DNA from: Promethearchaeota archaeon
GTDB taxonomy: Archaea > Asgardarchaeota > Lokiarchaeia > Sigyniarchaeales > SOKP01
Length of the DNA stretch: 42,639 nucleotides
Direction of reading: 5' to 3'
Assembly: GCA_016839585.1 (NCBI GenBank)
Contig: JAEOTZ010000047.1
Coordinates: forward strand, 1-42,639
The notes under the pieces were generated by a model. The model was not told the DNA's origin. It saw only the letters and a list, made by a program, of their open reading frames with translations, and ran no database searches. Positions 5,815 through 25,067 of the stretch are shown here, piece by piece; within the stretch, counting starts at the first letter, position 1; the number at the start of each line of letters is the position of its first letter. Both the position numbers and the translations under genes were made by a program.

Positions 5815-7869
5815 ATGATTGAAAAAAAACCTCAAAACAATTCCTTAAATCGCTGTAAATTCTGTGGGTGGAAATTTCCAAATGATTTGCTCGAAAAAAT
5901 TAACGAGAATAGTGATCCTCTATTTTGTGAACTCTGTGGTGCTGATATTAGATATGATAATGTAAGTAATCAAGAAAATGATGAAATAATTAAAAATAAA
6001 AGTGAAATTGATTTATGTGGTAGCACTGATAAATCAAAAATTTCCCTCTGGAAACGTATTTATGACACAATAAAAAAATTTGTAATTGAAACTGGAGGGA
6101 GAGAAATTCAAGAAGGATTAACTGAGAAACAAAAAGAAAGCATTACTAGAGTCTTTAATGACAATGATTTCCCAAAAATCTTTAAGGAAAACTTTATTAT
6201 TGTCTTTGCGCGAATTACCTATTTTGAGTTAAAAAAGCTAGAGAGTACGGCAAATCTAAAGAATAGTAAAAGGAATTTAACAAAAGCTGAACTTAAAACT
6301 TTGAATGAACGCCTTAAACCAATTACAGAGAAAGATATTAAAGGTGAATTCTTGAAAAACCTACATAAAATATCCCATAATTATTTTAGAAAATGGCTGA
6401 AAAAATTACAAGTTAAATTGAAGTCAAGTCCAACCTATTATAATGATTTCATCACCTACATCCAATGGCTTATTAAAATTATCGCTAAAATCGTTTCAGA
6501 ACTTTGGGAGAAGACTAATCTCCCCAAATTTGAACAAACAATACTTAAAGATTTAAAAAAATACTTTAACTCATTTTATTCTACTAAAAACAACATAAAA
6601 AATGAACCTGAAGATCAAAAATTAAGAAGACTTAAAGCAACAACTAATAATAAAATTAGTTTAGTTAAAAACACTTCTTTCAACTTGAATGGTGAGACTC
6701 CTGTAAGATCCCTTAATAATGAAGAATCGGAAGCTATAAATACTTTTACAATTTTAGAGCTATTTGAGAACTTAAAGGGAGAGTTAGAGAAAATAGATTC
6801 ACCTGAAATACTTGCTAGAGGAGGTTTAAGTGATAGTATGCTTAGTTCTTTATTAGGTAAATCAGAAAATCATATAAATTATATCAAATCTCAAATAAGG
6901 AAATATAAATTAAAGGGGGAAGTTTATCAGCTTGCTTTAGATTTATTTGATCATTATAAAGAGAGTTTGAAGTCTAAGTTTGGTGAAAAGGCTAAAAATG
7001 CTATTAATTTTATAGAAAAGTATAAGAATTTAAATTTCGTAAGAAAATCATTAAAAAGAATACATTCTCACCATCCAAATCTAATTCTAGATTATTTTAA
7101 GATAGTTAATAATAAAGAAAAAGCATATTGGCTTGGATTTATATTCGCTGATGGTTTTATAGAGGTAAATGGTAAGAGGTTTGCAATAGAACTTGGTAGA
7201 AAAGACAAGAGATTGCTTTATAAATTAGCAAAATGTTTGAAATTTAATGAAGATTATATATTTTATAATAAGGAACATAATTCGTATGTGCTCCGTTTTC
7301 AAAACGAAGAGTTTTGTAATTATTTAGTAAATCTTGGAATGATTCCAGGTGAAATAAAATCTAAAAAAATTAAACTTCCTAAGTTAGACAATCGGGAACT
7401 TTATTTGGCATTCTTATTAGGTTATTTTGATGGTGATGGTCATCAAGGCACATCTAGAATTACTTCAGGTTCAATAAAATTTCTTCGTCAGATTAAAAAT
7501 AGATACAATATCAAATATAGTATTGATTATAGAAGATCGACTTTAACTTTAGGAGCTAGTTTACTAAATGAAATGTTAGATAATTATAAAGATAGTTTAT
7601 TAAGAAAAAGAATTTATCTTAGAGTAAATGTAAAAGCAGAAGTGATAGATAATTTAGGAATTCAAATAGGTGAAATTTTTTACACTGTCGAAAGACTTAG
7701 TAAATTATTATGGGAGATTCCCCTATATAAATTAACAGAGATAATTTCTCAAGAATCAGGGGTGGAGATGTCTGATAGGACACTAGCAAAGTATTGTGAT
7801 AAATTAAATCTTCATAGACCAAATAGTGGTTATTGGCATCAGAAAAAGTTTTTAGGTAAATTCGGTTAA
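5815..7869 (+). CDS. Free-standing LAGLIDADG endonuclease-domain protein with an N-terminal Zn ribbon and a C-terminal HTH
   Basis: Two LAGLIDADG motifs (AYWLGFIFADG, AFLLGYFDGDG), N-terminal CKFC...CELC, and C-terminal LLWEIP...SDRTLAKYCDKLNLHRPNSGYW. No intein splicing motifs seen. Confidence 0.85.
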   Translation: MIEKKPQNNSLNRCKFCGWKFPNDLLEKINENSDPLFCELCGADIRYDNVSNQENDEIIKNKSEIDLCGSTDKSKISLWKRIYDTIKKFVIETGGREIQEGLTEKQKESITRVFNDNDFPKIFKENFIIVFARITYFELKKLESTANLKNSKRNLTKAELKTLNERLKPITEKDIKGEFLKNLHKISHNYFRKWLKKLQVKLKSSPTYYNDFITYIQWLIKIIAKIVSELWEKTNLPKFEQTILKDLKKYFNSFYSTKNNIKNEPEDQKLRRLKATTNNKISLVKNTSFNLNGETPVRSLNNEESEAINTFTILELFENLKGELEKIDSPEILARGGLSDSMLSSLLGKSENHINYIKSQIRKYKLKGEVYQLALDLFDHYKESLKSKFGEKAKNAINFIEKYKNLNFVRKSLKRIHSHHPNLILDYFKIVNNKEKAYWLGFIFADGFIEVNGKRFAIELGRKDKRLLYKLAKCLKFNEDYIFYNKEHNSYVLRFQNEEFCNYLVNLGMIPGEIKSKKIKLPKLDNRELYLAFLLGYFDGDGHQGTSRITSGSIKFLRQIKNRYNIKYSIDYRRSTLTLGASLLNEMLDNYKDSLLRKRIYLRVNVKAEVIDNLGIQIGEIFYTVERLSKLLWEIPLYKLTEIISQESGVEMSDRTLAKYCDKLNLHRPNSGYWHQKKFLGKFG

Positions 7870-8012
7870 TTTTATATTTAATATTTTTTTAAATAATTTG
7901 AATAATTAGTTGTTAGTATTTAATTAGAAATGCTTAATAGTAGGTAAGATGTTATATAATTATAAATCATTTTAAAAATATTTTAAAAAAAACTATAAGA
8001 AGGTGTATTTTT

Positions 8013-8318
8013 CTGGAAGATGATGGCAAACACTGTGTTGTGTGTGGAGGGGAAAGCTTTAGAATAGCTAATGATGAATGGATGAATTTTTAGGACTTTT
8101 CGACCTAAAACATCATACGTGCATTTAGATTTGTAGAAACAGGGCAATTAAAGATGTGCGACGGATGTGGAGCTAAATATTTATTATGCAAACAATGTGG
8201 TGGTTTATTCACACGGGTTCATCCAGCCCTAGAAGCATGGGAAGTTAATCAAAGATGCCCCGCTTGTGGAGCCGAGGATCCTGATGTTAAAGCATGGGAC
8301 GGAGTCTCAGCTCGTTAA
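8013..8318 (+). CDS. Intron-split double zinc-ribbon protein (~91 aa after splicing; exons 8013-8086 and 8117-8318)
   Basis: Spliced product: (M)EDDGKHCVVCGGESFRIANDEWMKRAFRFVETGQLKMCDGCGAKYLLCKQCGGLFTRVHPALEAWEVNQRCPACGAEDPDVKAWDGVSAR, with four CxxC motifs. SD-like AGGTG at 8001; probable CTG start. Absent from the ORF track. Confidence 0.8.
8087..8116 (+). other. 30-nt bulge-helix-bulge mRNA intron
   Basis: GATG(8081-84)/CATC(8111-14) 4-bp helix, 3-nt bulges AAT and ATA, inner stem TTTTAGG/CCTAAAA, exon stem ATGAATG/CGTGCAT. It carries in-frame TAG and TAA; removal gives ATG AAA CGT. Confidence 0.85.
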
Positions 8319-8516
8319 TCAACTCTATTATTTTTTTAGTCTCTTTTTTAATAAAAATGTGTTGATAATTTTTACATTAAATTTTGCACAATATTACAGA
8401 AATTAACTTTATAAAAAATCATTGTATAAAATTCATATCATTTGATTTTATTATTTATTACAAGTTAAGAAATTGTAAAAAAAGATTTATCGAAAAATAA
8501 AAAATGTATGATTAAC

Positions 8517-8975
8517 ATGGCTGATATTAAAGTTGAGATTGCTTCTCCTGAACAGATCGAGGATTTACGAGACTTAACAAAACATTTAGTTGAAGAGTTA
8601 GGGGAAAAATTTGATCCAAAACGTTTCGACTGGGGAATTCGAAGAAGATTGTATGATCCGTTACAAAGGCATGGAATCTTGATAGCCTTAGACGAGGAAG
8701 AGAATAAAGTTGCTGGTATGATTATTGCAGAACTTCGAATCGATCCTTTCGGAACTTCAGAGGGGTATATCAAACAATTTTTCCTAAAGGAAAATTATCG
8801 AGGGAAGGGATATGGTCGAATATTACTCGAAAAAGCCCTTGAACACCTTAAGAAAATAAAAGTAGAGAAGGTAAAAGTAAATCTCAGAGAGGAAGCAAAG
8901 AAAGCTTCTGATTTATATAAGAGTATGAATTTTAAGAAAGTATTCGAGGTTTTAGAATTAAATTTAGCTAAATAA
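8517..8975 (+). CDS. GNAT family N-acetyltransferase
   Basis: Acetyl-CoA motif A (YRGKGYGRILL) and C-terminal LYKSMNF. The start may be 8508 or 8517. Confidence 0.85.
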   Translation: MADIKVEIASPEQIEDLRDLTKHLVEELGEKFDPKRFDWGIRRRLYDPLQRHGILIALDEEENKVAGMIIAELRIDPFGTSEGYIKQFFLKENYRGKGYGRILLEKALEHLKKIKVEKVKVNLREEAKKASDLYKSMNFKKVFEVLELNLAK

Positions 8976-8982
8976 GATTCTT

Positions 8983-9948
8983 ATGAATATCCCTTGGGTT
9001 GAAAAGTACAGGCCACGGAGTTTTGATGAGATTGTAAGTCAGAATATCGCTATTAATAACATTAAAGAATTTACAAAAACCACCGATATGCCTCACATGA
9101 TCTTTGCTGGTCCTGCAGGAACTGGAAAAACAAGTACAGCATTAATAATAGCGAGAACATTCCTTAAAAAGGACGAAATTGCGACAAATCTTTTAGAATT
9201 GAATGCCTCTGACACCGTAAGAATGGATTTTGTACGAAATGTTCTTAAAGGTTTTGTAAATCAAAATATTATTAAGAATGGGTCTTTAAAATTTGTTATT
9301 TTGGATGAAGCAGATAATATCCCTTCCCAAGTTCAACAAGCTCTTAGAAGGATTATAGAAAAAACATCTAATAATATTAAATTCATATTATTATGTAATT
9401 ATATAAATAGAATAATAGATCCTATAATCTCTCGATGTGCTGTATTCAGATTTGTTAATTTACCCAAGGAGAAAATCATAGAGAGATTAAAGTATATCTC
9501 AAAGAAAGAAAAACTTCCATTACCTTCTAATAAAACACAAGAGTTTTTTGAAACGTTATTTTTTATTTCGGGTGGCGATTTAAGGAAAGCAATAAATACT
9601 CTTCAAATGTCAGTGGCTCTTGAATTATTAGATGATTTAGATATTAATGAAATTCTAAAAATTTCTGGATTTTTAGACGAAAAAACTCTGGAGCATCTAA
9701 TTGAAGCTATCAAAAATAAAGATTATAAGAAATCAAGGGAAATAATTGACTTAGTTGAAAATCTCGATAGTAGAAATTTTATACGACAATTATTAAACTC
9801 TCTACTTCCGCTTGATATCAATCCTCAAAACGCATCTATTTTAAGATCGTTTATTGGAGATATAGATTATCGTATAAGTCAAGGTGCAGATGAACATATA
9901 CAAATTGCAGCACTCCTGGCAAAAATTATAGAATTAGTAAATAAATAA
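8983..9948 (+). CDS. rfcS: Replication factor C small subunit
   Basis: PWVEKYRP, Walker A GPAGTGKT, LELNASD, Walker B ILDEAD, SRC motif, GDLRKAIN. Confidence 0.95.
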   Translation: MNIPWVEKYRPRSFDEIVSQNIAINNIKEFTKTTDMPHMIFAGPAGTGKTSTALIIARTFLKKDEIATNLLELNASDTVRMDFVRNVLKGFVNQNIIKNGSLKFVILDEADNIPSQVQQALRRIIEKTSNNIKFILLCNYINRIIDPIISRCAVFRFVNLPKEKIIERLKYISKKEKLPLPSNKTQEFFETLFFISGGDLRKAINTLQMSVALELLDDLDINEILKISGFLDEKTLEHLIEAIKNKDYKKSREIIDLVENLDSRNFIRQLLNSLLPLDINPQNASILRSFIGDIDYRISQGADEHIQIAALLAKIIELVNK

Positions 9949-10001
9949 AATTTTTAGATTTGGTATAAAAAAACGAAAAAAAATCATAAAGCGAAAAGAT
10001 A

Positions 10002-11048
10002 TTGAATACAGAAATTCCAATTTGGAGAATCAAATACTATCCGAGAAGTTTAAACGAATTTTGTGGAAGAGATAGTATAAAAGAAACATTACAACAAATT
10101 ATCAAACAAAAAAATTTCCCACATTTATTATTTATAGGTTCTGAAGGTATTGGAAAAACTACTCTTGCTCAATTATTTGCGAAAGAGTTTTTGGGCAATT
10201 ATTATGATACAAATTTTAAATTAGTTTATGCTAATGTTCCATTAAGTGATGATGAAAGGAACCAAGCCAAATCGGAGGCATATATCTCAACAAGTAAAAT
10301 CGGAAGTATTGCAGGTAAAAGAATAACAACTCCAGCATTTATTCAAATTAAAGTAAAACCTTTTGTACAATTAAAGGTAATTGGAGATGCCCCATTCAAA
10401 ATATTAATTGTAAAAAATTTTGAGTCTTTAGGGTCAGATCAGCAAGGATTTAGGAGATTAATGGAGATTTATGGTTCAAATTGTAGAATGATTTTAATCA
10501 CGACGAAAATTTCAAATATTATTGATCCTATCATAAGTAGATGTCAGATAATATTAATATCTCGCGTAAAAATTGATAGATTTAAAGATTTGATAATAGA
10601 GATTGCTAAAAATGAATCTTTAGTTATTGATGATACTGTTATTGAAGCTCTCTACAAGGTTTCTGAGGGTAAAATTTCAAAAGCAATCGATCTATTGCAG
10701 CTGTGTAGTATTTCAGGAAAAACTATTGATATGCAAAAATTATATGAACATTCACAAAGATTTCAAAATGATCTAATAAAAAATCTATTGTTACTAACCC
10801 TTCAAGGAGATTTTCCAAAATCGAGAGAATTGGCTCGAAAAATTATATCTAATTATAAATATGATTCACATGAAGTATTTACCCTTCTTCTTAAGGAATT
10901 AAATAAATTACCTTTAAATAAATTTACTCGTAATAAATTAATCAATTTAATAGCTGACTCTGATTTTAGGGCAATTGACGGAAGAGACATTGATATTCAA
11001 ATCTCTGCATTATTATCTAAAATATGTTTATTCTCAGAATATTTGTAG
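10002..11048 (+). CDS. Second, divergent RFC small subunit with a degenerate Walker B
   Basis: WRIKYYP, GSEGIGKT, IISRC retained; Walker B replaced by LIVKNFE; insertion after the NASD-equivalent position. Confidence 0.85.
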   Translation: MNTEIPIWRIKYYPRSLNEFCGRDSIKETLQQIIKQKNFPHLLFIGSEGIGKTTLAQLFAKEFLGNYYDTNFKLVYANVPLSDDERNQAKSEAYISTSKIGSIAGKRITTPAFIQIKVKPFVQLKVIGDAPFKILIVKNFESLGSDQQGFRRLMEIYGSNCRMILITTKISNIIDPIISRCQIILISRVKIDRFKDLIIEIAKNESLVIDDTVIEALYKVSEGKISKAIDLLQLCSISGKTIDMQKLYEHSQRFQNDLIKNLLLLTLQGDFPKSRELARKIISNYKYDSHEVFTLLLKELNKLPLNKFTRNKLINLIADSDFRAIDGRDIDIQISALLSKICLFSEYL

Positions 11049-11057
11049 GTGATTAAA

Positions 11058-12404
11058 ATGTCTAATAAAATTCCTTGGGTAGAAAAGTACAGACCACAAA
11101 GTCTTAAAGAAATGGCTTTATCTTCTGCAAAAGTTAGTGGCCATAGAATAAAATTGGATGAGGAATTAACCAATTTTATTAAAAACTTCTATATCGAAAT
11201 TAAAAAGATAAATGAAGAAAATAGAAAAATTAGAGCTTATAATAGAACTGCTATTGAAAAAGATCAAAAAGAGGAACTAAAAATATCTCCAGAAAAGGCA
11301 GCTATCTTATTAGAAGGTCCCCCTGGAATAGGGAAAACCTCAATTGTTTATGCACTTGCCAATGATTTAAACATGGAAGTTATTGAAACAAATGCATCTG
11401 ATACCAGAACAAGAAAGACTATAGAAAGGAGATTGAAAGAAACAACGAAAACACGAGGAATTATGGATTTTATCACACAATCAAAAGATAAATTGATTCT
11501 TATTGACGAAATCGATGGCCTTTATGGTGTACAGGATAGAGGAGCAGTTCCTACAATTCTAGAATTAATTGAAAATACTCAATTTCCAATAATTATGTGT
11601 TCAAATGAATATAAAACAAGCTTACAACCTATATATAACAAAATTCAAAGAGTTGAAGTGCATCCATTACCTGAAAATGAAATGCTTAAAATTACTGAAA
11701 AGATACTCGAAAAAGAGAAGATATCTAATCTTACCAATGAGGATTTGGAATTAATTATTGACAAGAATAATGGAGATTTGAGAGGAGTAATTAATGATCT
11801 TCAAGGAATTAGTCAAGGTATAATGGAAAAGGATAACAAAGAATTGATCCTTAGCTTACATCGTGATAGTATTGAAGAAATTTTTAGTTTAATAAGGGAA
11901 TTATTTCAAGTTACTACCCTAACAGAAGCCAGAAGCTTAACAGATAAATCAGATGTGGACTACAATTTTTTATATAAATGGATAAATGAAAATCTTCCAA
12001 CTTTCCTCAAAGCAAATAGAGATATTGCTAATGCTTATGAAAACCTCTCCCTCGCAGATGAAATTTTCGGCAGAATTCGCAAAACTCAATATTGGGGATT
12101 ATTGCCTTATTTTTATGACTTATTTGCTGGAGGGGTTGCATTATCCAGAAAAGAAACACCGCCTATTAAAGGATTTCGAAGAGTAATTTTCCCACGTTAT
12201 AGTACTGGTAGTTATTTTTCACTTACAACTGCAGAGAAAGAATTTGCTGAAAAAATTCAAAAAATATATGAAATTTCTCCTATTGAATTTTTACAAGATC
12301 TACTTCCATTCTTAAAAACCCTGAGTACATCATCAAGAAAACAACTTAAGATTATTAGCGATTGGCTGGAGTTAGATGCTAAAGAGAAGAAGTTACTGAA
12401 ATAA
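11058..12404 (+). CDS. rfcL: Replication factor C large subunit
   Basis: PWVEKYRP, GPPGIGKT, IETNASD, LIDEID, GDLRGVIND, WINEN. ATG 11058 follows SD AGGTGA at 11047. Confidence 0.92.
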   Translation: MSNKIPWVEKYRPQSLKEMALSSAKVSGHRIKLDEELTNFIKNFYIEIKKINEENRKIRAYNRTAIEKDQKEELKISPEKAAILLEGPPGIGKTSIVYALANDLNMEVIETNASDTRTRKTIERRLKETTKTRGIMDFITQSKDKLILIDEIDGLYGVQDRGAVPTILELIENTQFPIIMCSNEYKTSLQPIYNKIQRVEVHPLPENEMLKITEKILEKEKISNLTNEDLELIIDKNNGDLRGVINDLQGISQGIMEKDNKELILSLHRDSIEEIFSLIRELFQVTTLTEARSLTDKSDVDYNFLYKWINENLPTFLKANRDIANAYENLSLADEIFGRIRKTQYWGLLPYFYDLFAGGVALSRKETPPIKGFRRVIFPRYSTGSYFSLTTAEKEFAEKIQKIYEISPIEFLQDLLPFLKTLSTSSRKQLKIISDWLELDAKEKKLLK

Positions 12405-12765
12405 ACAAGGCTACTCTTATTTTCTCTTTAGAGGATATAGTAATACGAGATAAAAGCAATCTATATGTTGAAAGAAAATCTAATATTGAGTTTTTTCTTT
12501 CTATTTAATATCTCCAAAATTGAGTAGATTATTTATTAAAAATTATTTTAAAATCTGAACTTTTAAGTTAAAAAGGTTAAATAATTAGTTTAATTTTCCA
12601 AAGAGATGTTTGAAAGAGTATTAATCTTAACTAATAATATAATATCTTAATCTTTTGGGTTATGTGAGCTCTAATTTTTAATATAATTTTTTTACCAAAA
12701 ATGATTTAAATACTTTTTCAATATCTATCACAATAAATATTAAAATTATAAGTTAGAGGTTAAAA

Positions 12766-13446
12766 ATGTCTGAAATCAAAACATCTGATCTTGAACTTCC
12801 TGAAGAAAAAGAAGTTAAAATGTCAGGAAAAACATTGCATACATTAGAAATTGCTGGGGCTGGAATTTTTAGTGCGCTTTCAATAGTAATATCCGTTTAT
12901 ATTACACCGATTTTACCAAGAATTCCTGGTTGGCAAATTGCGATTGTTGATCCAATATCCATTATATGGATTACATGCTTGCTAATATTTGGTGTAAGAG
13001 CAGGATTGTTTTGTTTTGCTGTAGGCACTTTTGGATTGATGCCCTTTGATTCCACAGTATGGGTCGGACCTTTAATGAAATTTTCTGCGACTTTTTCATT
13101 AATGATTGTAGCTGTATTATTTCTAAAACTATATAAGAGAGAAGACGGAATACTTAAAAGCCAAAAACTCAAGAAGCCGAAAAATTATATTATCTATGGT
13201 TCTTTAGGCACAATTCTTAGAATTCTTGTTATGGTTGAATTGAATATAATTGTATTTTTAACAATTTGGGCAGAATGGCTTGATTATACAAACTTGAAAT
13301 TTTTAGGTTTACCTGACGTTTCAGGATGGGAGGCCCTTATTATTGGAGCTATTTTAATTAATGCGTGGCAAAGTGTATTAGATCTTTTAGTTCCTTACTT
13401 GCTTGTGTTTACTACTAAAATTGATGAAAAATTTGAAATTTGGTAA
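12766..13446 (+). CDS. Integral membrane protein, probably an ECF transporter S component
   Basis: About six hydrophobic helices, DP motif and GPLMKF pattern; size typical of S components. Confidence 0.65.
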   Translation: MSEIKTSDLELPEEKEVKMSGKTLHTLEIAGAGIFSALSIVISVYITPILPRIPGWQIAIVDPISIIWITCLLIFGVRAGLFCFAVGTFGLMPFDSTVWVGPLMKFSATFSLMIVAVLFLKLYKREDGILKSQKLKKPKNYIIYGSLGTILRILVMVELNIIVFLTIWAEWLDYTNLKFLGLPDVSGWEALIIGAILINAWQSVLDLLVPYLLVFTTKIDEKFEIW

Positions 13447-13597
13447 TAATATTTTTTAATTTTTTTTCAAACTACTTTTTTCTTTTTTAGCCTTATTTCA
13501 ATTAGCATCGGAATTTTTTTTAAATTTAAAGTAAAGAATATTTTTCTCAACTTCTATATATACTTATATTCAATAATTTAATGCAGAGAGGATTCAT

Positions 13598-14395
13598 ATC
13601 TTAAGTACTAATTTTAAGTATATAAAATATAATTTTGAAAATGGAATTGGAACGATTACTTTAAATCGTCCAGATAAATTAAATGCCCTACAATATCCCC
13701 TTTTAATGGAAATTATAGATGTTCTGGAGTCGATTATGAAGAAAAGAGCAGTACGTGCTCTTATTATTGAAGGAGAAGGTGATAATTTCTGTTCTGGTGA
13801 TGATATGGTAAATTTAGGGCCAGAAGGACCTAAATTTGCACCACTAGAAGATGGATCTCGGATGCCTCATCATAGAGTAGTCCGACTAATTCGGGAAATT
13901 CAAAAACCAGTTATTGCTTTGTTACATGGTTATTGCTTAGGAGCAGGATTTGATTTAGCACTTGCTTGTGATTTTCGATTAGCTGCAGATAATTTGAGAA
14001 TTGGCGATTATAGAAGTACAAGGGCTCAATGTGTGTTAAGCGGAACAAGCTGGTTTCTTCCAAGAATTGTTGGTTTAGCGAGAGCAACAGATATTATATT
14101 GAGTGGTAGACTTCTTGATGCAAAGGAAGCATTAGAAATTGGACTTGTTAATAAAGTATATCCTTTTTCAGAATTTAAGGAGAAATCTAAAGAGTATATA
14201 CAAAAGATAGCAGAACTTCCAACGATGTGTATAGGTTATGATAAAGCAATGTTAAATTACTCTCAGTATAATGAATTAATACACTCGTTACAAAACGAAT
14301 TTAGATTGTATTGCAAAAATATTAGAACCTCTGATTTCGGAGAGGGAATGAAATCATTTTCACAAAAACGTGATCCCAAATTTAAAGGAAGATAG
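13598..14395 (+). CDS. Enoyl-CoA hydratase/isomerase (crotonase) family protein
   Basis: FCSGDD, GYCLGAGFDLALACDFR, EALEIGLVN. The conserved N-terminal ITLNRPDKLNAL is in frame upstream of the called ATG at 13706. Start uncertain (~13598-13601). Confidence 0.88.
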   Translation: MLSTNFKYIKYNFENGIGTITLNRPDKLNALQYPLLMEIIDVLESIMKKRAVRALIIEGEGDNFCSGDDMVNLGPEGPKFAPLEDGSRMPHHRVVRLIREIQKPVIALLHGYCLGAGFDLALACDFRLAADNLRIGDYRSTRAQCVLSGTSWFLPRIVGLARATDIILSGRLLDAKEALEIGLVNKVYPFSEFKEKSKEYIQKIAELPTMCIGYDKAMLNYSQYNELIHSLQNEFRLYCKNIRTSDFGEGMKSFSQKRDPKFKGR

Positions 14396-14438
14396 AAATT
14401 TCTTAATAATAAAAATATAGAATAAAAAATTGATTAAG

Positions 14439-15701: not shown

Positions 15702-15706
15702 AATTA

Positions 15707-16939
15707 TTAATTTTTTTCTTCCTTCCTGATAATTTTAGAGAAATCAGTAATAGCAAATATTATTATACATAGAAGTAATAGAATTGAAATGTATAAGAAC
15801 GCCCAGGTATAGGAAAATAGATCATAAATAAATCCAAAAATTATAGATTCTCCTAAAGAAATCAATCCCACAGAAAGATAGTAATAACCATAAGCTCGCC
15901 CACGTTTTTTCTTTCCAGCTAAATCTGCGATGTATGCTCTTGAAATGGGATCCACAGAGGCTAAATAATATCCATAAACGATAAATATGATGATTATTAC
16001 TAATATAGAATAAAGTGAAATCCTAATAGGAAAAGCTAGAAAAATACAAGTAACTAATAATAGTGATAAACCTATTATAATAATTGATTTTCGTCCAATC
16101 TTATCAGATAACGATCCTGTTATGGGAGAAAATACTGTATAAATAATATTACTAATTAAATATAAAATGGGTATTAGAAATTCAACAGGGACATAATCTA
16201 TAGCTCTAATAATAAGAAAGGCAATATCTAAACTCGCAAATTCAATAACTCCAAGAATTATGATTAGCTTTATAAAATTTCTATCAACTTTTTCCATTTT
16301 AGGTTCCATATCTTTCTGAATTCCTAAAGTTTTATCTATATCACTTGGATCAACATCTCTTACCATTAATATCAAAGCAATCGCTAAAATGCCTGGAAAA
16401 ATTGAGAAAAAAATGATCTGTGAATATGACCATGCTAATAGTAAGAATAGAAACGCTAACAATGAACCTACTACAGCACCTAATGTATCCATTGCTCTAT
16501 GTAACCCAAATGCTTTACCTTTCTCAACTGCATAATAGGATATCAAAGTATCCCTTGAAGAAGTCCTCAAACCTTTTCCAAAACGATCTGCTGTCTTTAA
16601 TCCTAATACAAATTCCCAAGATGGACTAAGACCAATAAAGGGTTTAGATAAATTTGACAATGAATACCCAGCAACAATAAAAGGTTTCCTCTTATTTATC
16701 CTATCACTTAACCAACCTGTAAATCCTTTTAAGATATTGGAAATTGCTGTTGTGACACCTGAGATTAAACCAAGAATCGTAGCTGTCCCACCAATAGAAA
16801 AAATAAATAGGGGTAATATACTCTGTATCATTTCACTTGAAACATCAGTGAAAAATGATACTAGTCCCATTATAAATACTTGAACTGAAATACCTAGGAT
16901 AAGTTTTTGACTATGAATAGAATTATTTTCTTCAACCAT
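15707..16939 (-). CDS. MFS transporter
   Basis: TDVSSEMI, GWLSDRINKRKP, GSLSDKIGRK and ~12 TM helices. True start probably MVEENN at 16939, because the longer call overlaps the divergent gene. Confidence 0.9.
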   Translation of the reverse strand: MVEENNSIHSQKLILGISVQVFIMGLVSFFTDVSSEMIQSILPLFIFSIGGTATILGLISGVTTAISNILKGFTGWLSDRINKRKPFIVAGYSLSNLSKPFIGLSPSWEFVLGLKTADRFGKGLRTSSRDTLISYYAVEKGKAFGLHRAMDTLGAVVGSLLAFLFLLLAWSYSQIIFFSIFPGILAIALILMVRDVDPSDIDKTLGIQKDMEPKMEKVDRNFIKLIIILGVIEFASLDIAFLIIRAIDYVPVEFLIPILYLISNIIYTVFSPITGSLSDKIGRKSIIIIGLSLLLVTCIFLAFPIRISLYSILVIIIIFIVYGYYLASVDPISRAYIADLAGKKKRGRAYGYYYLSVGLISLGESIIFGFIYDLFSYTWAFLYISILLLLCIIIFAITDFSKIIRKEEKN

Positions 16940-16997
16940 ATTCCAAAAAATTTTTTTATTGAATAAATATAATAAAAATAATTGAAAAAAATATATT

Positions 16998-17690
16998 ATG
17001 ATTCCAATGTCAGAAGAAAAAAGTACTTTAAATATTATTGATAAAACCCTTAGGGATGTAGAAACTAATTTTAAAGATTTTATAAATGTTCTACAAACTG
17101 CAAGAAAAGAATTAATAGAACTTGAAAATGATAAATTATCTTTAAGCAATGAGAAAGAAATCCTTGAAGCTGAAAAGATACAATTAGAAAATGAAAAATC
17201 TAAATTAGAAGTAGAGAAAAAACAATTAGAGCGGGATAAAATTACCTTAGAAGAAGAGACAAAAAAATTAGCTAAAGAAAAGCAAGAAAGGGATCAGAAA
17301 ATAGGTGCAATGACAGAAGAACAAATGAAATTACTTGATGAATATCAAAAGGTAAAAGTTGAATTACAAAAATTTATGCAAGCAGCTGCAGCAGCCGAGT
17401 CAGCAGAATTTAATTTTGAAAGAGTTCGTGCTTTGCTATCTATTTATGCCGCTTTAGTATCTGAAATTTGGCAAGGACAACCGCATTATAGGATTTTATA
17501 TACTTTACATGGAGATAAGGAAGAAATGACACGAGAGGAACTGAAAAACACAACAGGAATTGGAGGAGCATTTATACTACATTCAGTTCAAGAACTGGCA
17601 AAAGTAGGACTGCTTGAATATGATATGGATACAGGAACTGCAAAATTAAAAAAACGGTTGTTTCCAAAGAAAGCAATAGAAGAAAAATGA
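16998..17690 (+). CDS. Coiled-coil protein with a probable C-terminal winged helix
   Basis: Heptad LExEK repeats followed by MTREELKNTTG...VQELAKVGLLEYD. Confidence 0.7.
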   Translation: MIPMSEEKSTLNIIDKTLRDVETNFKDFINVLQTARKELIELENDKLSLSNEKEILEAEKIQLENEKSKLEVEKKQLERDKITLEEETKKLAKEKQERDQKIGAMTEEQMKLLDEYQKVKVELQKFMQAAAAAESAEFNFERVRALLSIYAALVSEIWQGQPHYRILYTLHGDKEEMTREELKNTTGIGGAFILHSVQELAKVGLLEYDMDTGTAKLKKRLFPKKAIEEK

Positions 17691-17694
17691 GATC

Positions 17695-18099
17695 TTAATC
17701 TTTTAAAAGATTGAATATTTTTAATAGAGTTAACATTTTAGTCAATCCCTTTATTTTTACTTTCCTTGTTAGCCATTTTATTCCAATATTTATTAAAGAA
17801 ATCTTATCCATTGCCAGTGCTAGAAAAATCTGAGAGTTCATGGAAATATAACCATCCCAACCTAATATCTTCTTCTTCAAATTGCTTTGTGGTTTATTTT
17901 TAACACTCTCAATAATTACCTTACCATTATCTATAGTAATTAAGGCAGCATAGGTTAAATTTGAAGCATTTATGAGAAATTTTCGTTTTTTATTCTTAAA
18001 TTGCTCTTTAAATTTAGGATTTTTATTTAGAGGGTCTACAACATTTTCAATAAGTCCAGCGAAACCCCTTGCTTTTTTTTCAATTATTTTAGTTTCCAT
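17695..18099 (-). CDS. SCP2 sterol-carrier-like domain protein
   Basis: ITIDNGKV...KWLTRKVKIKG pattern; last gene of the oxidoreductase operon. Confidence 0.55.
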   Translation of the reverse strand: METKIIEKKARGFAGLIENVVDPLNKNPKFKEQFKNKKRKFLINASNLTYAALITIDNGKVIIESVKNKPQSNLKKKILGWDGYISMNSQIFLALAMDKISLINIGIKWLTRKVKIKGLTKMLTLLKIFNLLKD

Positions 18100-18129
18100 T
18101 ATTATCCCTTTCTAATCTATTTTTCTAAT

Positions 18130-19701
18130 TTAATTCTCTGATTTTGCTGAAATATAAAATCCGGAATCAGCAATTTCATTAGGATCAAATGCTTTCTTTA
18201 TCTTTCTTAACCATTTATGATAATTCATCATATATGGACCAAACATATTATGCATACGGTCACCTTCTACGAAAAATGGAGCTCCTAAATGTTTAACCAA
18301 ATCAAATTGATAATTATCCTCCATGAATTCTCCCATTCCTTTCACACTTTCCTCATCTGTTTGATCAAATAATGTTATCGATTCTACATGAAAATAATGG
18401 CCTGATTCATATGAAGTCATCCATACTCCCTCTCCAAAATCATTTCCTATTACTCCTTTTTTAATATATTTCTTTTTTAGTGGTATGCTCTTTTTCGTAG
18501 TTCTAAGACATGTTTTAACAGTATCACATTGACCTTTCGCTGATTGAAAACCTCCTGTTACTATGAAGCCATGTAATCCTAAATTTGAACGCAGTGCTTC
18601 AGCATAAAAAATTGAATTTGGAGTGTATTTTGTACCAATAATATTTTTTAAATTTAATTCGTCCAAGAGGATCTCCATTACTTTTTGCTTATAATTAAAT
18701 TCATATTTAGTTCTAGCTGCGATAAGCACAACTAGAGGAGTTTTTAGGCTAGCAATTGGCATTTTATCCATCATAGATTCAACACTATGCGAAAAAATTG
18801 CTGTTAACCCATAACCTGACAGGTGGCTACACATAAAGGAAATTTCCTCTTCTTCAATTCGTAAAATAACTTTCTTAAGATATTTATAACTTCCACAATC
18901 CATTACATATAATCGCATGAAATCGGGAATATCAAAATTATAGTTAGGAGAATAACCCTGTAACTTAAATTCAGTGCTACATGGATATGGAAAAAGTTTG
19001 ACAGCTACTTTTGTAAAGACACCAATTCCAGATTTTGCGCCTGCCCACCCTCTCATTATTCCTCGTAAACTAGGACCTGGACCATCACCATTGTACCAAT
19101 CCGAGTGATTCTTTAAACCCGCTGAACCTAACTTTAAGACTTCTCCATTTGGTAATACCCATTCTACACCAAGTACATTTCGAGCACTATGCCCTGTATG
19201 AGGTGAAGTAAATCCTGGACCGTTCATAGATGTTGCGCTAGCAAGAGGGGAGACTTGTGGGCCTGCCCCTGGCATATGGACCGTTAAATCATATTTCATA
19301 GCTTCAACTTGCAGTTGTGCCCCACTAACATATGGTTCCACTACAGCATATAGATTTTTATCATCAATTTTAATGATTTTATTCATTCTTCTGAGATCCA
19401 AAATAATTGAGTTTTCTGTTGAAGGTTGATTCCAAGGGCCTAAACCAGTTGATTGAGCTTTAAATTGAATTCTATACTTATTACATAATTTCACAACTTC
19501 TTGAACTTCTTCTGTTGAGGAAGGTAATATTACTGCTTTAGGTATGGGGGAAAATGGTATTGGTTCTTTATCTTCCATGTAATTGACATATTCCATACAC
19601 CAATTATAGGAATACGCATTTGTAATTACTTCACCATCATTAACATTTTTTGAACCAACAATGTCTTGGAATTTTTTGAGAATTTCTTTTTCTAATACCA
19701 C
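18130..19701 (-). CDS. FAD-binding oxidoreductase (GlcD/VAO, FAD_binding_4 family)
   Basis: AVILPSSTEEVQEVVKLCN, LDLRRMNKI, VEPYV, VLPNGEV, KIKKAFDPN. Confidence 0.9.
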   Translation of the reverse strand: MVLEKEILKKFQDIVGSKNVNDGEVITNAYSYNWCMEYVNYMEDKEPIPFSPIPKAVILPSSTEEVQEVVKLCNKYRIQFKAQSTGLGPWNQPSTENSIILDLRRMNKIIKIDDKNLYAVVEPYVSGAQLQVEAMKYDLTVHMPGAGPQVSPLASATSMNGPGFTSPHTGHSARNVLGVEWVLPNGEVLKLGSAGLKNHSDWYNGDGPGPSLRGIMRGWAGAKSGIGVFTKVAVKLFPYPCSTEFKLQGYSPNYNFDIPDFMRLYVMDCGSYKYLKKVILRIEEEEISFMCSHLSGYGLTAIFSHSVESMMDKMPIASLKTPLVVLIAARTKYEFNYKQKVMEILLDELNLKNIIGTKYTPNSIFYAEALRSNLGLHGFIVTGGFQSAKGQCDTVKTCLRTTKKSIPLKKKYIKKGVIGNDFGEGVWMTSYESGHYFHVESITLFDQTDEESVKGMGEFMEDNYQFDLVKHLGAPFFVEGDRMHNMFGPYMMNYHKWLRKIKKAFDPNEIADSGFYISAKSEN

Positions 19702-21043
19702 TTATACTACCTCCTTAGTTATTTCTTTCAATTTTTCAGGTTCCAAACCTAAAGACATTAATATTAGTTCGCTAATATCATAATATTTCAGATTAGCGCC
19801 ACTTTCTTCAATTCCATCTTGTAAATTCGTTGAACAAAATGGACATGCCGATACAAGTGTATCTGCTCCAGTATCTTCAGCTTCCTCAATTCTAATTTTT
19901 GCAGTCTGTAGGGCAAATTCAGGAAAAGCGGATTTTACACCAGCTCCTGCACCACAACAATAAGCATATTCTTTTATACGCTCCATTTCTACAAATTTTA
20001 ACCCTGGAATTTTTTTTAATATATTTCTGGGAGGTTCATATATACCATTTGATCCAGTACGCTTAGGTTTTGGGGGTATGTTAATTGATACAAGAGGCAT
20101 CAAATTAACAATATCACCATCCCAATCTTTATATCTTTCAGCATTCCTTCCTAAATGACAGGGATCATGATAGGTTACGGTTATTGGTATTTCTTTTATT
20201 AGTTTTAATTTACCAGTATCGAGTAGCTCATCAAAAAATTCCACAGTATGTAATACTCTAAAAGTATATTCCCTATATAATGGATAATCTACTTTAAATG
20301 TATCATAGCATCCAGCACAGCTAAAAATGACCGTATCAATCCCCTTCGATTCAATGACATCTAAATTTTTATTAAGAAATTTTTTAAAAGTTTTCACATC
20401 TCCAGTTCGCAAAATAGGACTACCACAACAAAATTCCTCATCTTGTAATATATTAAATGGAATCCCTGCAGCCTTGAGGATACGAGCCGCTGCGATTGCC
20501 ATCTCTTGTCTTCGATAGGAAGAGGTGCAACCTACAAAATACAAGACTTTAGCATCTGGATCTAATCGAATATCTTTTGGTAACCAAGCCAACCTCTTCT
20601 CGTGAGGTTCATTGTAAGGATTATTGACTTTATTGGCAGCTTCTATATATTCTTGCTGTTTTGGCATTGGACCACCTCCTAATTCAACTAATTTTTCCCT
20701 AAGTTTCATTATAATTTCTAACGGTTCCAAAGTATTGAGAAATTTGCATGAAACAGCACAACTCCCACATTCAGTACATTTGTAAACAATTTCTCGTAAT
20801 TCTTCTGAAGGTTCAATTCTGCCTGTCTCTAATAACAAAGCTAAGATTATGCGACCTCCGCCGCTATATGGATGATAATTATAAATATCTATCGACGGAC
20901 ATGCAGTGGCGTATTTTTGACTTTTAATTTGAACTTGCGGTATCCATTTGCATTTCTCGGATAAGAGAGCCATTCTTTTTATCTATCGAGCATCTTAGAC
21001 ACCGTTTAATCATGTTATTATACTCATCTTCACTAAGTGAGAT
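19702..21043 (-). CDS. Intron-split Fe-S/CCG-domain oxidoreductase (GlpC/HdrD/GlcF-like); exons 21043 (or 21013)-20985 and 20953-19702
   Basis: CTECGSCAVSC, two CCG domains, YHDPCHLGR. After splicing the N-terminus reads MIKRCLRCSICKWIP...ACP, completing the first 4Fe-4S motif. Confidence 0.88.
20954..20984 (-). other. 31-nt bulge-helix-bulge (relaxed) mRNA intron
   Basis: Minus strand reads TG-CTCG-AT^A-GATAA...TTATC-CGAG-AA^A-TGC. Removal corrects a frameshift and gives TGC TCG ATA TGC. Confidence 0.85.
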
Positions 21044-21498
21044 TTAAATCACCTTAATTTATTCTTAATTTCTATGCTAAATCTTCATAACATATTTCAA
21101 GAATATTTTTGTTATACGGTTTTAATTTTTTTAATAAAATCAGATCTTGGTTTAATTTGGTTAAAAAATTATTTAAAACTTCCGCTTAAATGAAAAAAGA
21201 CTGAACATTAATGACCAACAATATTAAAAATAATTCGCATTAAGTGAATTGGTTCATTTAACCAATAACATCGCAACGAAATCGTAATGTGGCACAAATG
21301 TGGCATAAAACGGCATAACTCGAAGATATTATACTATTTTTGAATTATAAAAAAAATAGATACATAATGTCTAATTCTTATCTACTGGATTTATAACATA
21401 TCATCTCATTCCAAATCTTTTTTTATTTAAATATAAATGCCTATATTAATAGTTTAACAGTGGTAGTCTAATAAAATTAAAAAAATTGAAGACAAAAA

Positions 21499-22119
21499 AT
21501 GAATTTGCTTATATCTAATGATAATAAACTTAATTATTATGATGAGAATCTTGATCAAACTGAAAATAAAATAACTGTACTTTCTCGTCAGTTGAAAACT
21601 TATTTAAATTATAGGGAATCAACTATACTTGCGATATGTAGGGAATCTGAGAATTCTCTTGATATTTTAAAAAATCACTCAATTCAAAAATGGGAAACGG
21701 AACTAAACATACTTTACTTAGAATATTGTATATTTTTGGAGAAATATATTGGACCGAAAGAAAATCTTAAGATGAATGTCTTAATGTTGGCAAAAAAAGC
21801 GCTTTCTTTTCCAAATAGTCCAGAAGCAAGATCCTTTAAAAAATTTTTAAAAAATAAAATAAGATTGTGGGAATTATTACATATACTCTCAGCATTAGAA
21901 ATTCACACGAGACCTCAGTTATTAAAGCGGGTAATACAGATATTAACAAAATTATGTAATGATGAAAGCAAATTAAATGCAAATGTACCAGATTTTTTTC
22001 AACAACTTAAGCTAAATTATCAACAATTGGAGCGGGAGTATGATCAATTACTTTTAACAAAAGGAAAGGTGCAGATTAAGAGTAAAAATACAAATAAGAA
22101 AGTGATGGTTCGAGAATGA
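21499..22119 (+). CDS. Hypothetical helical protein, translationally coupled to the GIY-YIG gene
   Basis: 206-aa ORF with an ATGA overlap at 22116-22119. Confidence 0.7.
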   Translation: MNLLISNDNKLNYYDENLDQTENKITVLSRQLKTYLNYRESTILAICRESENSLDILKNHSIQKWETELNILYLEYCIFLEKYIGPKENLKMNVLMLAKKALSFPNSPEARSFKKFLKNKIRLWELLHILSALEIHTRPQLLKRVIQILTKLCNDESKLNANVPDFFQQLKLNYQQLEREYDQLLLTKGKVQIKSKNTNKKVMVRE

Positions 22120-25067
22120 TAGATACTAAGAATCAAGCTACTCGGAAAGGATTAAAAGGAGATCGCGTTGCAGTGTGTCCTAAATTTGGATGCAGTACGC
22201 TTGAAAAGTTAAAACCATTGAAACTTGGACTTTTTGGAATCCAGAAATATCCCAAATGCAAAGACCATAAAATTCATTTGGTTTTTGTGGATGAATTTAT
22301 TGGAGATTTCCTTCAATCTGTAAATGCATGTTTGTTTGATAATTCAATAGCGCCCCCTAAAGCCTTATTAGAATTGGTTAAAGAAGAGAGCCCTAAGAAT
22401 CTTCTATCCGTTTACCACAAATGGATGTATTGTTCTTCCCTAGGGAGAGGAGCCAAGATAGTGCCGGGATATTTGGACTCCTTATCAAGAGCCTATAAGA
22501 ATTCCTTAAACAAAAGACAGAAAAAGTCAATTGAAAATGATTCTTACATAAAAAAGAGGAATAAATTGATCACACTAGGATTTAGGAAAATAGAAATGGA
22601 GTACATTGAATTCTTAAAGAAGCTATATGATATGAATGAAAGGCTTTTTAATAAAGAAGAAATAAAACCTTTTCCCCGACTAGTTAAAAAGTTAATTCAA
22701 GATTGGTTAATCAAGTTTTTAAAAAATATAAATAAAGGATACTTACAAAACAAACAAATTAATAACTCAGATTCAATAAGTCTGAAAAAAACTAAATACG
22801 ATAAAATCCTACAAGCAAGAACTTGTATGCTAATATTGGGGAGATCTCCCTCAGAACTTCCAATAAAAATTTCTCCCTATGAGCTTTTCGCAACTTATCG
22901 TATATTTTTAGAAAACGATTTGTGCCACGAATTTGTTCCAGAAGAAAATAATTTGAAAATAGGAAGTAGAAAAGAGTATTTCTTACAAGAATTAAATAAT
23001 AATAACTCAAAAGTTGGAAATATCAAAGAGATTAATAGAAATACTTCTTTTATATTAAAAAACTGGGGAGAGTATTATGGAGTGATTTATATTTTAATAG
23101 ATAATAATAAAGATAATACTTTAAAATATAAAATGCTCTACATCGGGCAAACTATTCAAAAACTAAAAATAAGGTTCTACAGTCATATAAATTACTCACC
23201 CAATAAATATCTTAGAGAAGCTTTCGGAATGTATGGTAAAAAATTTTCCCTTCTCAAAATTGACAATAAGACTCTTCAGACTACAGGCGGAGAATTTACT
23301 ATGAAGGTTATTAAGAAGTGTAAAGACCTAGATAATTTGAACAAGTATGAAAAATTTTTTATTAAAAAATATAAATCATGTGTTTTGGATCATTATTTTA
23401 TTGGAAAAGATGGTAAAAGAAGACCGCTGTATGGATATAACATTAGTAGAGGCGGTGGTGGCTTTCCTGCAATAACTGGAGAGGAGCATGGTAGTTTCAT
23501 TCATATAGATCAAGATTCTCTTAAAGATTTATTAAAGAGAGGTTTTTCTGCTGAGGAAATTGCGAGAGAATTTGAGATTTCAATCCCAACACTGATTAGT
23601 AAAGTAGAATATTATTGGAAACACTTGGGAATAGAAAACCTACGTGATGCAAGGGCTAAATTTGGAGGAAACCAAGCTTTTCTCGATAGATTCGGAATTG
23701 TTGCTAAATCAGTTATAGGTGTTGAGTTAGATATCCCAAAGCTAATAGATCTTATTGAACAGGGATTATTTTTAAGTGAGTTAGAAGAAGAGTTAGGGAC
23801 TTCATTTTCAACAATTACAAAACATTTGCAAAAAATAGGTTTTAAAAATCTTACAGATGCAAGGATAAGATTAGGTGCTATGGAGACTTTTAGAAAAAGA
23901 TGGATTCAAAAAAAAGCATCAGCTACATTACGGGGGAGCGACCATCAAGATTATATTCAAATTAATAAAGAGGAAATCATAAAAATCATAAAACTGGATA
24001 TGTCCCCTAAAGAAATAGCAGATTATTTTGGTGTGTCAAGACCTACAATATTATCTCGTTTAAATGAATATTGGGGAGTAAATTTCTATGAAGCTAAACG
24101 ACTTTTTAAAATCTACCCTAAAGTAGATAAAATACTTGGAGAAAATATTATATCGAGCATTAGTGAATGTGCTATTAGTGATATTGATATAATATATTTA
24201 CAATCATTAATTTATGCCGGGTTTAATATGACACAAATTGCCTTAATTTATGAGAGAGGAGTAAAATGGATGCATGAATTTATGACAGAAATACTGGATA
24301 TTGATTTTACTCCCCATATGTATTTTCAGTCTGCGAAAGATTTATTTTATTGGAAACCACGTATAATCAATGCTATTATGGCAGATTATAAAATATCTGA
24401 TGTTGTGAGGGAGTTGCATGTCACTACATATTTTCGGGAATTAGGTAGAATTTGGAAAAAAGAGTATGATGAATTTAATCAAAACAATGATAATTTATAT
24501 AAATATCTGAAAAGATTTTATTTATTTTATCCATTTATGGACAAAAAATTATTAATAAACTTAATAGCTGAAAACAAAAGTTCCACTGAAATTGATGAGG
24601 AATATAAAAGAAAATGGGGAGTATATGGTTATACGGATTCAGAATATCATAAATTTCTAAGAAGATGTATATTTGTTTATAACAAAATAAACAATGACTA
24701 TCTTAATCAATTATTTATCAAATCTACATCAGCAAGAGATATCGACATTGCGTTTTTAAAAATTCTTCTTAGGAATACATCCACTATGCAAGAAATCGCC
24801 GAAAAATTACAAATAGGAATAGTTCAAACAAGGAAATTCTTAATAAATATTTTAGGAATTAATTATAAGGAAGCGGTTAGGGAATTCGTTTGGAAACCCG
24901 AATTATTTTCTTATATAGAAAAATATGATTCTATTTCAGATATCGCACATAATGAGGATTATAACCTCTCTACTCTTAGACATAGGTTCAGAGTAATATG
25001 GGCAGATGAATTAAAAAAATTAGGGTCTTTAAAGAAAGTGTATAGACATCTAAAAGAAAAATTTTAG
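22116..25067 (+). CDS. GIY-YIG endonuclease-domain protein with an N-terminal Cys/His domain and multiple C-terminal HTH repeats
   Basis: GVIYILID...LYIGQT...IRFYSH...YE...YNISRGG; CPKFGC...CKDH; repeats such as SAEEIAREFEISIPTL and SPKEIADYFGVSRPTI. Confidence 0.85.
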   Translation: MIDTKNQATRKGLKGDRVAVCPKFGCSTLEKLKPLKLGLFGIQKYPKCKDHKIHLVFVDEFIGDFLQSVNACLFDNSIAPPKALLELVKEESPKNLLSVYHKWMYCSSLGRGAKIVPGYLDSLSRAYKNSLNKRQKKSIENDSYIKKRNKLITLGFRKIEMEYIEFLKKLYDMNERLFNKEEIKPFPRLVKKLIQDWLIKFLKNINKGYLQNKQINNSDSISLKKTKYDKILQARTCMLILGRSPSELPIKISPYELFATYRIFLENDLCHEFVPEENNLKIGSRKEYFLQELNNNNSKVGNIKEINRNTSFILKNWGEYYGVIYILIDNNKDNTLKYKMLYIGQTIQKLKIRFYSHINYSPNKYLREAFGMYGKKFSLLKIDNKTLQTTGGEFTMKVIKKCKDLDNLNKYEKFFIKKYKSCVLDHYFIGKDGKRRPLYGYNISRGGGGFPAITGEEHGSFIHIDQDSLKDLLKRGFSAEEIAREFEISIPTLISKVEYYWKHLGIENLRDARAKFGGNQAFLDRFGIVAKSVIGVELDIPKLIDLIEQGLFLSELEEELGTSFSTITKHLQKIGFKNLTDARIRLGAMETFRKRWIQKKASATLRGSDHQDYIQINKEEIIKIIKLDMSPKEIADYFGVSRPTILSRLNEYWGVNFYEAKRLFKIYPKVDKILGENIISSISECAISDIDIIYLQSLIYAGFNMTQIALIYERGVKWMHEFMTEILDIDFTPHMYFQSAKDLFYWKPRIINAIMADYKISDVVRELHVTTYFRELGRIWKKEYDEFNQNNDNLYKYLKRFYLFYPFMDKKLLINLIAENKSSTEIDEEYKRKWGVYGYTDSEYHKFLRRCIFVYNKINNDYLNQLFIKSTSARDIDIAFLKILLRNTSTMQEIAEKLQIGIVQTRKFLINILGINYKEAVREFVWKPELFSYIEKYDSISDIAHNEDYNLSTLRHRFRVIWADELKKLGSLKKVYRHLKEKF

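Follow-up and report, generated by a model that had tools for sequence, protein, structure and literature searches.

Free-standing homing-type nuclease genes beside bulge-helix-bulge mini-introns in protein-coding genes of an Asgard archaeon: a possible case of collaborative homing

A stretch of 42,639 nucleotides (nt) from a Promethearchaeota archaeon (contig JAEOTZ010000047.1 of assembly GCA_016839585.1; the whole stretch is called the window below) contains two split protein-coding genes, one for a Zn-ribbon protein and one for a GlcF/HdrD-like iron-sulfur subunit (glcF). Each is interrupted by a short insert with the geometry of a bulge-helix-bulge (BHB) intron, and each adjoins a gene with a homing endonuclease domain. 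A reading of the window from its letters alone (the sequence-only reading) had pointed out both pairs, and this was borne out: the positions are as claimed, and removal of the inserts restores the ortholog sequence exactly. The distances given there are also correct, with 218 nt between the end of the LAGLIDADG gene at 7869 and the intron at 8087, and 515 nt between the intron at 20984 and position 21499. The latter value holds for the open reading frame (ORF) starting there; the real edge of the GIY-YIG cassette, mapped against the sister genome G043, is at 21199 and thus 215 nt from the intron. The features are the following (aa, amino acids).

5815..7869, plus strand: free-standing modular nuclease gene, 684 aa, double LAGLIDADG (PF14528, PHROG 4645, PDB 2dch)
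8013..8086, plus strand: Zn-ribbon gene, exon 1; its frame aligns with the ortholog N-termini M.(Q/K)EDGKHC.VCG, same sequence in G043
8087..8116, plus strand: mini-intron, 30 nt, canonical hBHBh'; scan match, splice product equal to intron-less orthologs, identical in G043
8117..8318, plus strand: Zn-ribbon gene, exon 2; 59-96% identical to orthologs, 45 of 54 genus genomes
19702..20953, minus strand: GlcF/HdrD-like iron-sulfur subunit, exon 2; Pfam CCG 2e-36, Fer4_8; orthologs in 41 of 41 genomes of the relatives sample
20954..20984, minus strand: BHB mini-intron, 31 nt, by geometry; identical in G043 and in metagenome contig L146
21013..20985, minus strand: GlcF-like exon 1 (MIKRCLRCS + AT), 29 nt, in a different frame from exon 2; ortholog alignment, G043
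21014..21198, no strand: intergenic stretch common to G043, missing in the intron-less alleles G012:C10 and G063
21199..25056, plus strand: nuclease cassette; exact indel against G043, which has TATA in its place
21499-22119, plus strand: possible partner ORF, 206 aa, no family match, upstream of the GIY-YIG gene
22116-25067, plus strand: GIY-YIG gene, 983 aa; profile matches and motif residues

The source genome, G000, of which the window is contig C33, has a G+C content of 29%; E2 (UQ_con) genes, which gave 0 matches in 14 control prokaryotes, agree with its assignment to the Asgard archaea. The sister genome G043 was assembled independently and shares 92-95% DNA identity with G000. The cross-genome comparison covered 54 genomes of the genus, and GlcF orthologs were surveyed in a sample of 41 genomes of relatives. 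Loci of three further host genes, encoding an acetyl-CoA-synthetase-like protein (ACS), E2 and a GH38-like protein, were examined with 4-5 kilobases (kb) on either side. By nuclease family we denote the patchy, multi-copy, modular homing-type nucleases of these genomes, for which about nine loci are present in G000.

The LAGLIDADG protein (P0001) matches PF14528 with 38.6 bits (cut-off 22.5), PHROG 4645 'endonuclease' at 2e-28 and the homing endonuclease of PDB entry 2dch at 5e-8, and both acidic motifs, FADG and FDGDG, are present. Its N-terminus consists of about 400 aa of Zn-ribbon and helical sequence without family match. A usable ESM Atlas match was not obtained for this N-terminal module, and NCBIfam gave no match for P0001 or P0003. 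For the GIY-YIG protein the Pfam score straddles the cut-off of 22.6 bits, being 19.2 bits when the protein is searched and 24.3 when the genome is scanned; PHROG 7168 'homing endonuclease' is matched at 2e-7, and VIY, YIG, R, H, E and N of the motif are readable. The domain is internal and is followed by a run of helix-turn-helix (HTH) repeats. A GIY-YIG paralog on contig C63 is likewise preceded by an overlapping ORF (G000:C63:23242-23997). Such ORFs, of 206-252 aa, may be coupled partners of the GIY-YIG genes.

Both nuclease genes of the window are insertions relative to other members of the genus, and the LAGLIDADG gene at the Zn-ribbon locus was not found in G012 or G017. Among the family copies, N-terminal modules and nuclease domains have been swapped, as in the copy on contig C53, which combines an N-terminus of the GIY-YIG type with a LAGLIDADG domain. 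The sequence-only reading had seen two unrelated nuclease families with the same layout. The layout is indeed present at both loci, but the two types are not fully independent because they have exchangeable N-terminal modules in common.

To judge whether the inserts are introns, the frames have to be considered in detail. The Zn-ribbon frame in the window (...CVVCGGESFRIANDEWMNF, stop, DFST, stop, NIIRAFRFVETGQLKMCDGCG...) is broken by two stops, and the orthologs examined have an uninterrupted ORF of 92-100 aa (...DEWM(K/R)RAF.FVE.GQLKMC...). The geometry scan and a register set by hand gave one register at this site, with a central helix H of four Watson-Crick pairs (GAUG/CAUC), two bulges of 3 nt each (AA^U and AU^A, the caret following the second bulge base), an inner helix h' of 7 base pairs (bp; UUUUAGG/CCUAAAA) and an outer helix h of 3 bp (AUG/CGU). 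If the RNA is cut after the second bulge base, 8087-8116 is removed and ATG AAA CGT remains, which reads DEWM-K-RAF and matches the orthologs. In glcF the central helix is CUCG/CGAG, again with four Watson-Crick pairs, the bulges of 3 nt each are AU^A and AA^A, the inner helix has 5 bp (GAUAA/UUAUC), and h is weak, with two wobble pairs; the whole is enclosed by a 9-bp outer helix between the exons, CGGUGUCUA/UGGAUACCG. Removal of 20984-20954 gives MIKRCLRCSICKW, whereby CxxCxxC is restored and the product equals the 93%-identical intron-less ortholog, MIQRCLRCSICKW.

One must keep in mind that likeness to the BHB fold is by itself weak evidence, since the genome yields about 184,000 loose matches and equally many are obtained with a mirrored control. 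The case for introns rests on the restoration of the ortholog sequence, to the base, at cut sites predicted by the geometry. Judged by these restored sequences, both inserts are genuine tRNA-type (BHB) mini-introns with exact junctions. Their removal from messenger RNA (mRNA) must, given the gene content, fall to the host splicing endonuclease, for which two EndA paralogs are encoded (PF01974; catalytic-domain genes at C2:77426-77650 and C39:1832-2080, about 200 aa each), together with the RtcB ligase (PF01139, one gene, on C7). Two separate EndA genes suggest a heteromeric splicing endonuclease, a type with a broad substrate range.

The objection that the inserts are not introns and that the genes are simply broken, or the contigs misassembled, could draw on the unremarkable fold energies of both inserts and on exon 1 of the Zn-ribbon gene, which contains no in-frame ATG, GTG or TTG, in relatives beginning with ATG (MAQEDGKHC). 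The start is here likely the CTG at 8013, 7 nt past a GAAGGTG that resembles a Shine-Dalgarno sequence (window 8007-8022), and the non-canonical start is not a sequencing error, because G043 (L044) has the same sequence. Assembly errors are likewise excluded for the inserts, both of which are identical in the independently assembled G043, the glcF insert also in L146. Both exons are moreover open and conserved, and the predicted cut sites restore the ortholog sequence to the base, so that we consider broken genes hardly credible as an explanation.

Two further host genes in G000 show the same arrangement. The ACS gene on contig C53, recognized when Pfam was applied to the neighbors of nuclease loci, is split between positions 208 and 222 of the AMP-binding profile; WMMWNW is restored once its 30-nt intron (C53:4382-4411) is taken out. 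Immediately upstream is a LAGLIDADG gene of the family. The E2 gene on contig C5 has a 32-nt intron (C5:68318-68349; central helix CCAG/CUGG, both bulges AA^A) located 340 nt downstream of a 1001-aa nuclease gene of the family. Including the two genes of the window, four of about nine family loci in G000 thus adjoin a gene with a mini-intron (Zn-ribbon, glcF, E2, ACS), with 0.2-1.2 kb between nuclease gene and intron.

The ACS gene was compared at 20 loci. In eight of them one and the same 30-nt intron sits at an identical codon position, and in G001 and G053 its arms differ by compensatory changes. Five of these eight have, next to the gene, a LAGLIDADG homolog of 67-74% identity or a 31-aa remainder of one; the 12 intron-less loci all lack such a neighbor (Fisher p 0.004, uncorrected for relatedness). 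In a windowed permutation test over a 1.7-kb stretch, the intron-bearing alleles cluster only in the intervals -60..0 and 0..+60 (p <= 0.001). G043 has neither intron nor nuclease at this gene, and its identity to G000 rises from 73-80% on the nuclease side, upstream of the intron, to 92-97% just downstream. This jump places a recombination breakpoint at the intron.

Parts of the 3' end of the ACS gene recur as short duplicates close to ACS loci, for the most part where a LAGLIDADG gene is present (L078 9343-10632, L080 1207-1707, L063 2453-2536, L087 3678-3896). They could be a trace of repeated recombination at the end of the gene.

At the E2 locus, intron and nuclease occur together in G000, a homologous intron without nuclease is found in G041, and neither is present in G043 and 12 other genomes. 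The segment concerned is inverted and 85% identical between G000 and G043, as opposed to 97-98% in the flanks (L066 3959-4518 compared with L095). The GH38-like gene was found as a fifth host by blastx of 35 nuclease loci of relatives against the ORFs of G000. It has a canonical 30-nt intron at codon 18, which in G002 lies 230 nt from a divergent LAGLIDADG gene; in G005 the nuclease gene at this locus is broken. A nuclease gene stands beside two of the six intron-bearing loci (one copy being this pseudogene) and beside none of the 13 intron-less ones.

The two genes of the window were compared in the same way. The pair of LAGLIDADG gene and Zn-ribbon intron is found only in G000 and its sister G043 and therefore counts as one event. 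The glcF intron and the cassette are both present in G000 and in L146, where the left part of the cassette lies next to the intron and which was the single contig retrieved by a metagenome pattern search for this intron; both are absent from G012:C10, G063, G067, G017 and G024. Relative to an intron-less allele of 92.5% identity, the surroundings of the glcF intron (20930-21030, minus strand) show 11 synonymous differences, clustered no more than about 25 nt from the intron. Where the intron is 5'-proximal, the edge of the cassette coincides with the start of the host gene or lies slightly upstream, and the host gene has been reshaped at its 5' end: the N-terminus of E2 is new, glcF has 9 aa fewer than its intron-less alleles, and the ATG of the Zn-ribbon gene is gone.

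The contig G012:C10 (L041, 4383 nt) is 92.5% identical to the window, compared with about 72% for the syntenic region of G012:C17. It is probably a contig of a G000-like strain that was binned into G012, and served here as an intron-less, cassette-less allele of glcF.

Over all five host genes, every adjacent nuclease gene sits by an intron-bearing allele. The check proposed with the sequence-only reading, co-occurrence of intron and nuclease among orthologs, therefore came out in part: in the 54 genomes the nuclease was seen only beside intron-bearing alleles, but many introns stand without one. Its proposal that nuclease and intron spread together gained from the adjacency at ACS, GH38 and E2 and from the breakpoint at ACS, and lost from glcF in G043 and from the Zn-ribbon pair being only one event.

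The pairing could also be a coincidence, in that ordinary host-spliced mini-introns and nuclease genes, the latter being independent selfish insertions in intergenic hot spots, have no functional link. The sites upstream of the glcF and Zn-ribbon genes are in fact variable insertion spots across the genus and received unrelated insertions as well, namely an integrase fragment with Mrr_N (G017), a response regulator (G024) and a 339-aa ORF (G012, G062, G069), and it must be added that the initial readers were primed to spot neighbors. On the other side stands the count of four paired loci among about nine, for which the binomial p is 2e-4 if 50 introns are assumed in the genome and 3e-3 with 100; these values, as well as the Fisher value for ACS, overstate the case because the genomes are related. 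None of the 38 or more intron-less loci, viewed with 4-5 kb on either side, has a nuclease gene, G000 and G043 differ in intron and nuclease together at both ACS and E2, and chance would also have to account for the breakpoint at the ACS intron. We regard coincidence as unlikely.

Several observations nevertheless weigh against a functional link between nuclease and intron. A split neighbor was not seen at four or five of the family loci in G000, and most of the mini-introns listed for the genome (GAPDH, pfk, uS3, Rab and others) lie outside the mapped neighbors of nuclease loci. Many intron-bearing alleles in the genus are without nuclease. G043 has the glcF intron and lacks exactly the cassette 21199-25056; here the homing model needs a later deletion, because an intron-bearing allele should resist invasion. 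At E2, about 100 nt of G043-like sequence (97%) lie between the nuclease-side boundary and the intron, which means that no continuous conversion tract joins the two. The likeness of the flanks is in part forced by structure: several of the synonymous changes in glcF build the 9-bp outer helix, and at GH38 the clustering of flanks is weak and partly due to the helix needing a CGU Arg codon. For the two loci of the window themselves, the evidence for linkage is thin and mixed.

The Zn-ribbon gene adds a further complication. In G005, G066, G041 and G042 it contains a second, different 30-nt BHB intron (L047 about 4040-4070 in G005; also L048, L049 and L050), with H GAUG/CAUU and first bulge AA^U, located 9 nt upstream at DE^WM. 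The octamer TGGATGAA is flanked by the two intron positions. This second intron, too, speaks against the link, since it has no nuclease beside it in G005, G066 and G041, where the next gene upstream is a conserved 107-aa gene; in G042 a 196-aa ORF without Pfam match lies upstream. Two different introns around one octamer might instead indicate that introns are born by nuclease action, repeated cutting selecting for short insertions, or creating them through repair, of which only the spliceable ones survive. The E2 intron would suit such an origin as well, being an isolated 32-nt insertion in native sequence close to a newly arrived nuclease gene. However, the introns of ACS, GH38 and E2 are homologous across distant species, which implies one origin and subsequent spread, not repeated birth, and no known mechanism would produce a BHB fold paired with the upstream exon. 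This origin appears to us very unlikely.

A related possibility is that the nuclease cuts elsewhere nearby and that linked markers, a pre-existing intron included, are merely co-converted without any immunity conferred by the intron. The spacing of 0.2-1.2 kb fits known ranges of co-conversion, the duplicated ACS fragments by LAGLIDADG genes hint at activity at the gene end, and the clean empty site in G043 could be the target of the GIY-YIG enzyme. Such hitch-hiking would require an initial chance linkage at five different genes, though, and the sharing of ACS alleles peaks at the intron and not toward the nuclease gene. Since the short common tract is also found in intron-bearing alleles that have no nuclease, we consider this possibility quite unlikely, somewhat more so than coincidence.

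How many coding mini-introns G000 contains bears on the chance of adjacency. Strict and relaxed BHB scans with restoration of the ORF gave no excess over the control with mirrored geometry; an excess appeared only when at least four G-C pairs were demanded (15 versus 6, 10 versus 3). The strict scans miss three of the four verified introns, AT-rich hairpins swamping the signal, and the intron count therefore stays uncertain; as estimated from the scans it is probably in the tens, not hundreds. For the enrichment near nuclease genes that the sequence-only reading proposed to look for, the pertinent count is that of the four paired loci among about nine. Strict scans at eight nuclease loci of relatives gave no match. 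Repeats of the introns or of the intergenic flanks were not found elsewhere in the genome, hairpins with an ATATC loop were not enriched, and a scan of hairpin geometry showed no peak.

Other inserts and introns were noted along the way. A 533-aa gene a few kb from E2 has a stop-bearing, BHB-like insert of 30 nt in G017, G060 and G024 and not in G000 (L097 about 9352, L102 about 2211, L110 about 8162), with no nuclease match within the fetched loci. ARAGORN reported only 18 tRNA genes in G000 (99% complete), 11 of them with an intron; the majority probably escape detection owing to multiple or non-canonical introns. One tRNA-Tyr gene, with a 49-nt intron, lies 961 nt from the nuclease gene on C5.

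Taken together, the nuclease genes are mobile, their adjacency to introns is non-random, and the sharing of alleles at ACS is local. From this we infer the cleavage target, the immunity conferred by the intron and a route of DNA exchange between cells. We put the probability that nuclease and mini-intron are functionally linked, as in collaborative or trans homing, at about 0.5. Three observations agree with what this kind of homing predicts: nuclease depends on intron in one direction, alleles at ACS are shared locally, and the sister genomes differ in both elements at once. The nuclease would cut intron-less alleles of the neighboring gene where the intron would sit or close by. In the DNA, the 30-nt insert would destroy this target, and splicing by the host would keep the protein intact. 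With repair off an intron-bearing donor, a short conversion tract would then transfer just the intron, and a long one the nuclease gene as well. Later the nuclease gene would decay or disappear and leave an orphan intron behind; this last step is in keeping with the nuclease remnant in G002 and the broken copies found in G005 and G019. In its full form the proposal, which we put forward tentatively and with slightly less assurance than the link itself, is that nucleases and host-spliced 30-nt BHB introns constitute composite selfish units in Asgard chromosomes, in which the nuclease drives the intron into coding genes by gene conversion, the intron shields the copy carrying it, and orphans remain after loss of the nuclease.

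The closest precedent is found in phages, where F-CphI acts with the psbA group I intron of cyanophage S-PM2 and mobE of T4 with the nrdB intron in collaborative or trans homing (PMC6083498, PMC2790892). There as here, the intron contains no nuclease ORF, and the nuclease is encoded by a free-standing gene next to the intron-bearing one. The phage enzymes cleave alleles lacking the intron at its insertion site or close to it, their target is split by the intron, and nuclease and intron can move jointly or separately; in the case presented, cleavage and immunity are conjectural, the nucleases carry large additional N-terminal modules, and the intron is a 30-nt host-spliced BHB element in an archaeal chromosome instead of a self-splicing ribozyme in a phage. 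The T4 seg and mob endonucleases, which perform intron-less homing (PMC2988022), are similar in that their genes are inserted between conserved genes and are patchy among relatives. They cut the neighboring gene a few hundred bp away, and point differences in the target, instead of a spliceable insert, make the carrier immune.

Among archaea, BHB introns of ribosomal RNA (rRNA) and tRNA genes encode LAGLIDADG enzymes such as I-DmoI, I-PorI and I-Tsp061I (PDB 2dch), and 16S introns of this kind occur in Thermoproteales (PMC4496867). They share with the present case the BHB splicing by EndA and the DNA mobility driven by LAGLIDADG enzymes, and mini-introns without ORF occur among them too. Their nuclease ORF, however, lies inside the intron and their hosts are RNA genes, whereas here the nuclease gene is outside, 0.2-1.2 kb off, and the hosts are protein-coding. 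A BHB intron within an archaeal coding sequence is known from the cbf5 pre-mRNA of Crenarchaeota, where it is removed by the tRNA machinery and was gained and lost among lineages (PMC2738675). That intron affects a single gene, belongs to another phylum and is not reported to have a nuclease gene associated with it, in contrast to many genes and adjacent nucleases here. Repeated gains of tRNA introns were described for Asgard archaea (bioRxiv 10.64898/2026.10.13.758758), probably in the same lineage, with the same splicing motif and many independent gains; that study deals with tRNA genes only, and the terms 'homing', 'LAGLIDADG' and 'mRNA' are absent from its text.

In the searchable literature, cbf5 is the only archaeal coding sequence with a documented BHB intron (PMC2738675), and collaboration between a free-standing nuclease and an intron is described only for group I introns of phages (PMC6083498, PMC2790892). 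A nuclease encoded outside the intron, combined with host splicing of a 30-nt intron and with protein-coding host genes on a cellular chromosome, would be a new variation on these known kinds. The nucleases with long HTH arrays may also serve as new site-specific enzymes. If the proposed link holds, collaborative homing would extend from ribozyme introns of phages to protein-spliced introns of cellular chromosomes, the many orphan mini-introns in these genomes would be accounted for, and a concrete mechanism would be at hand by which coding genes gain and spread introns in the closest archaeal relatives of eukaryotes.

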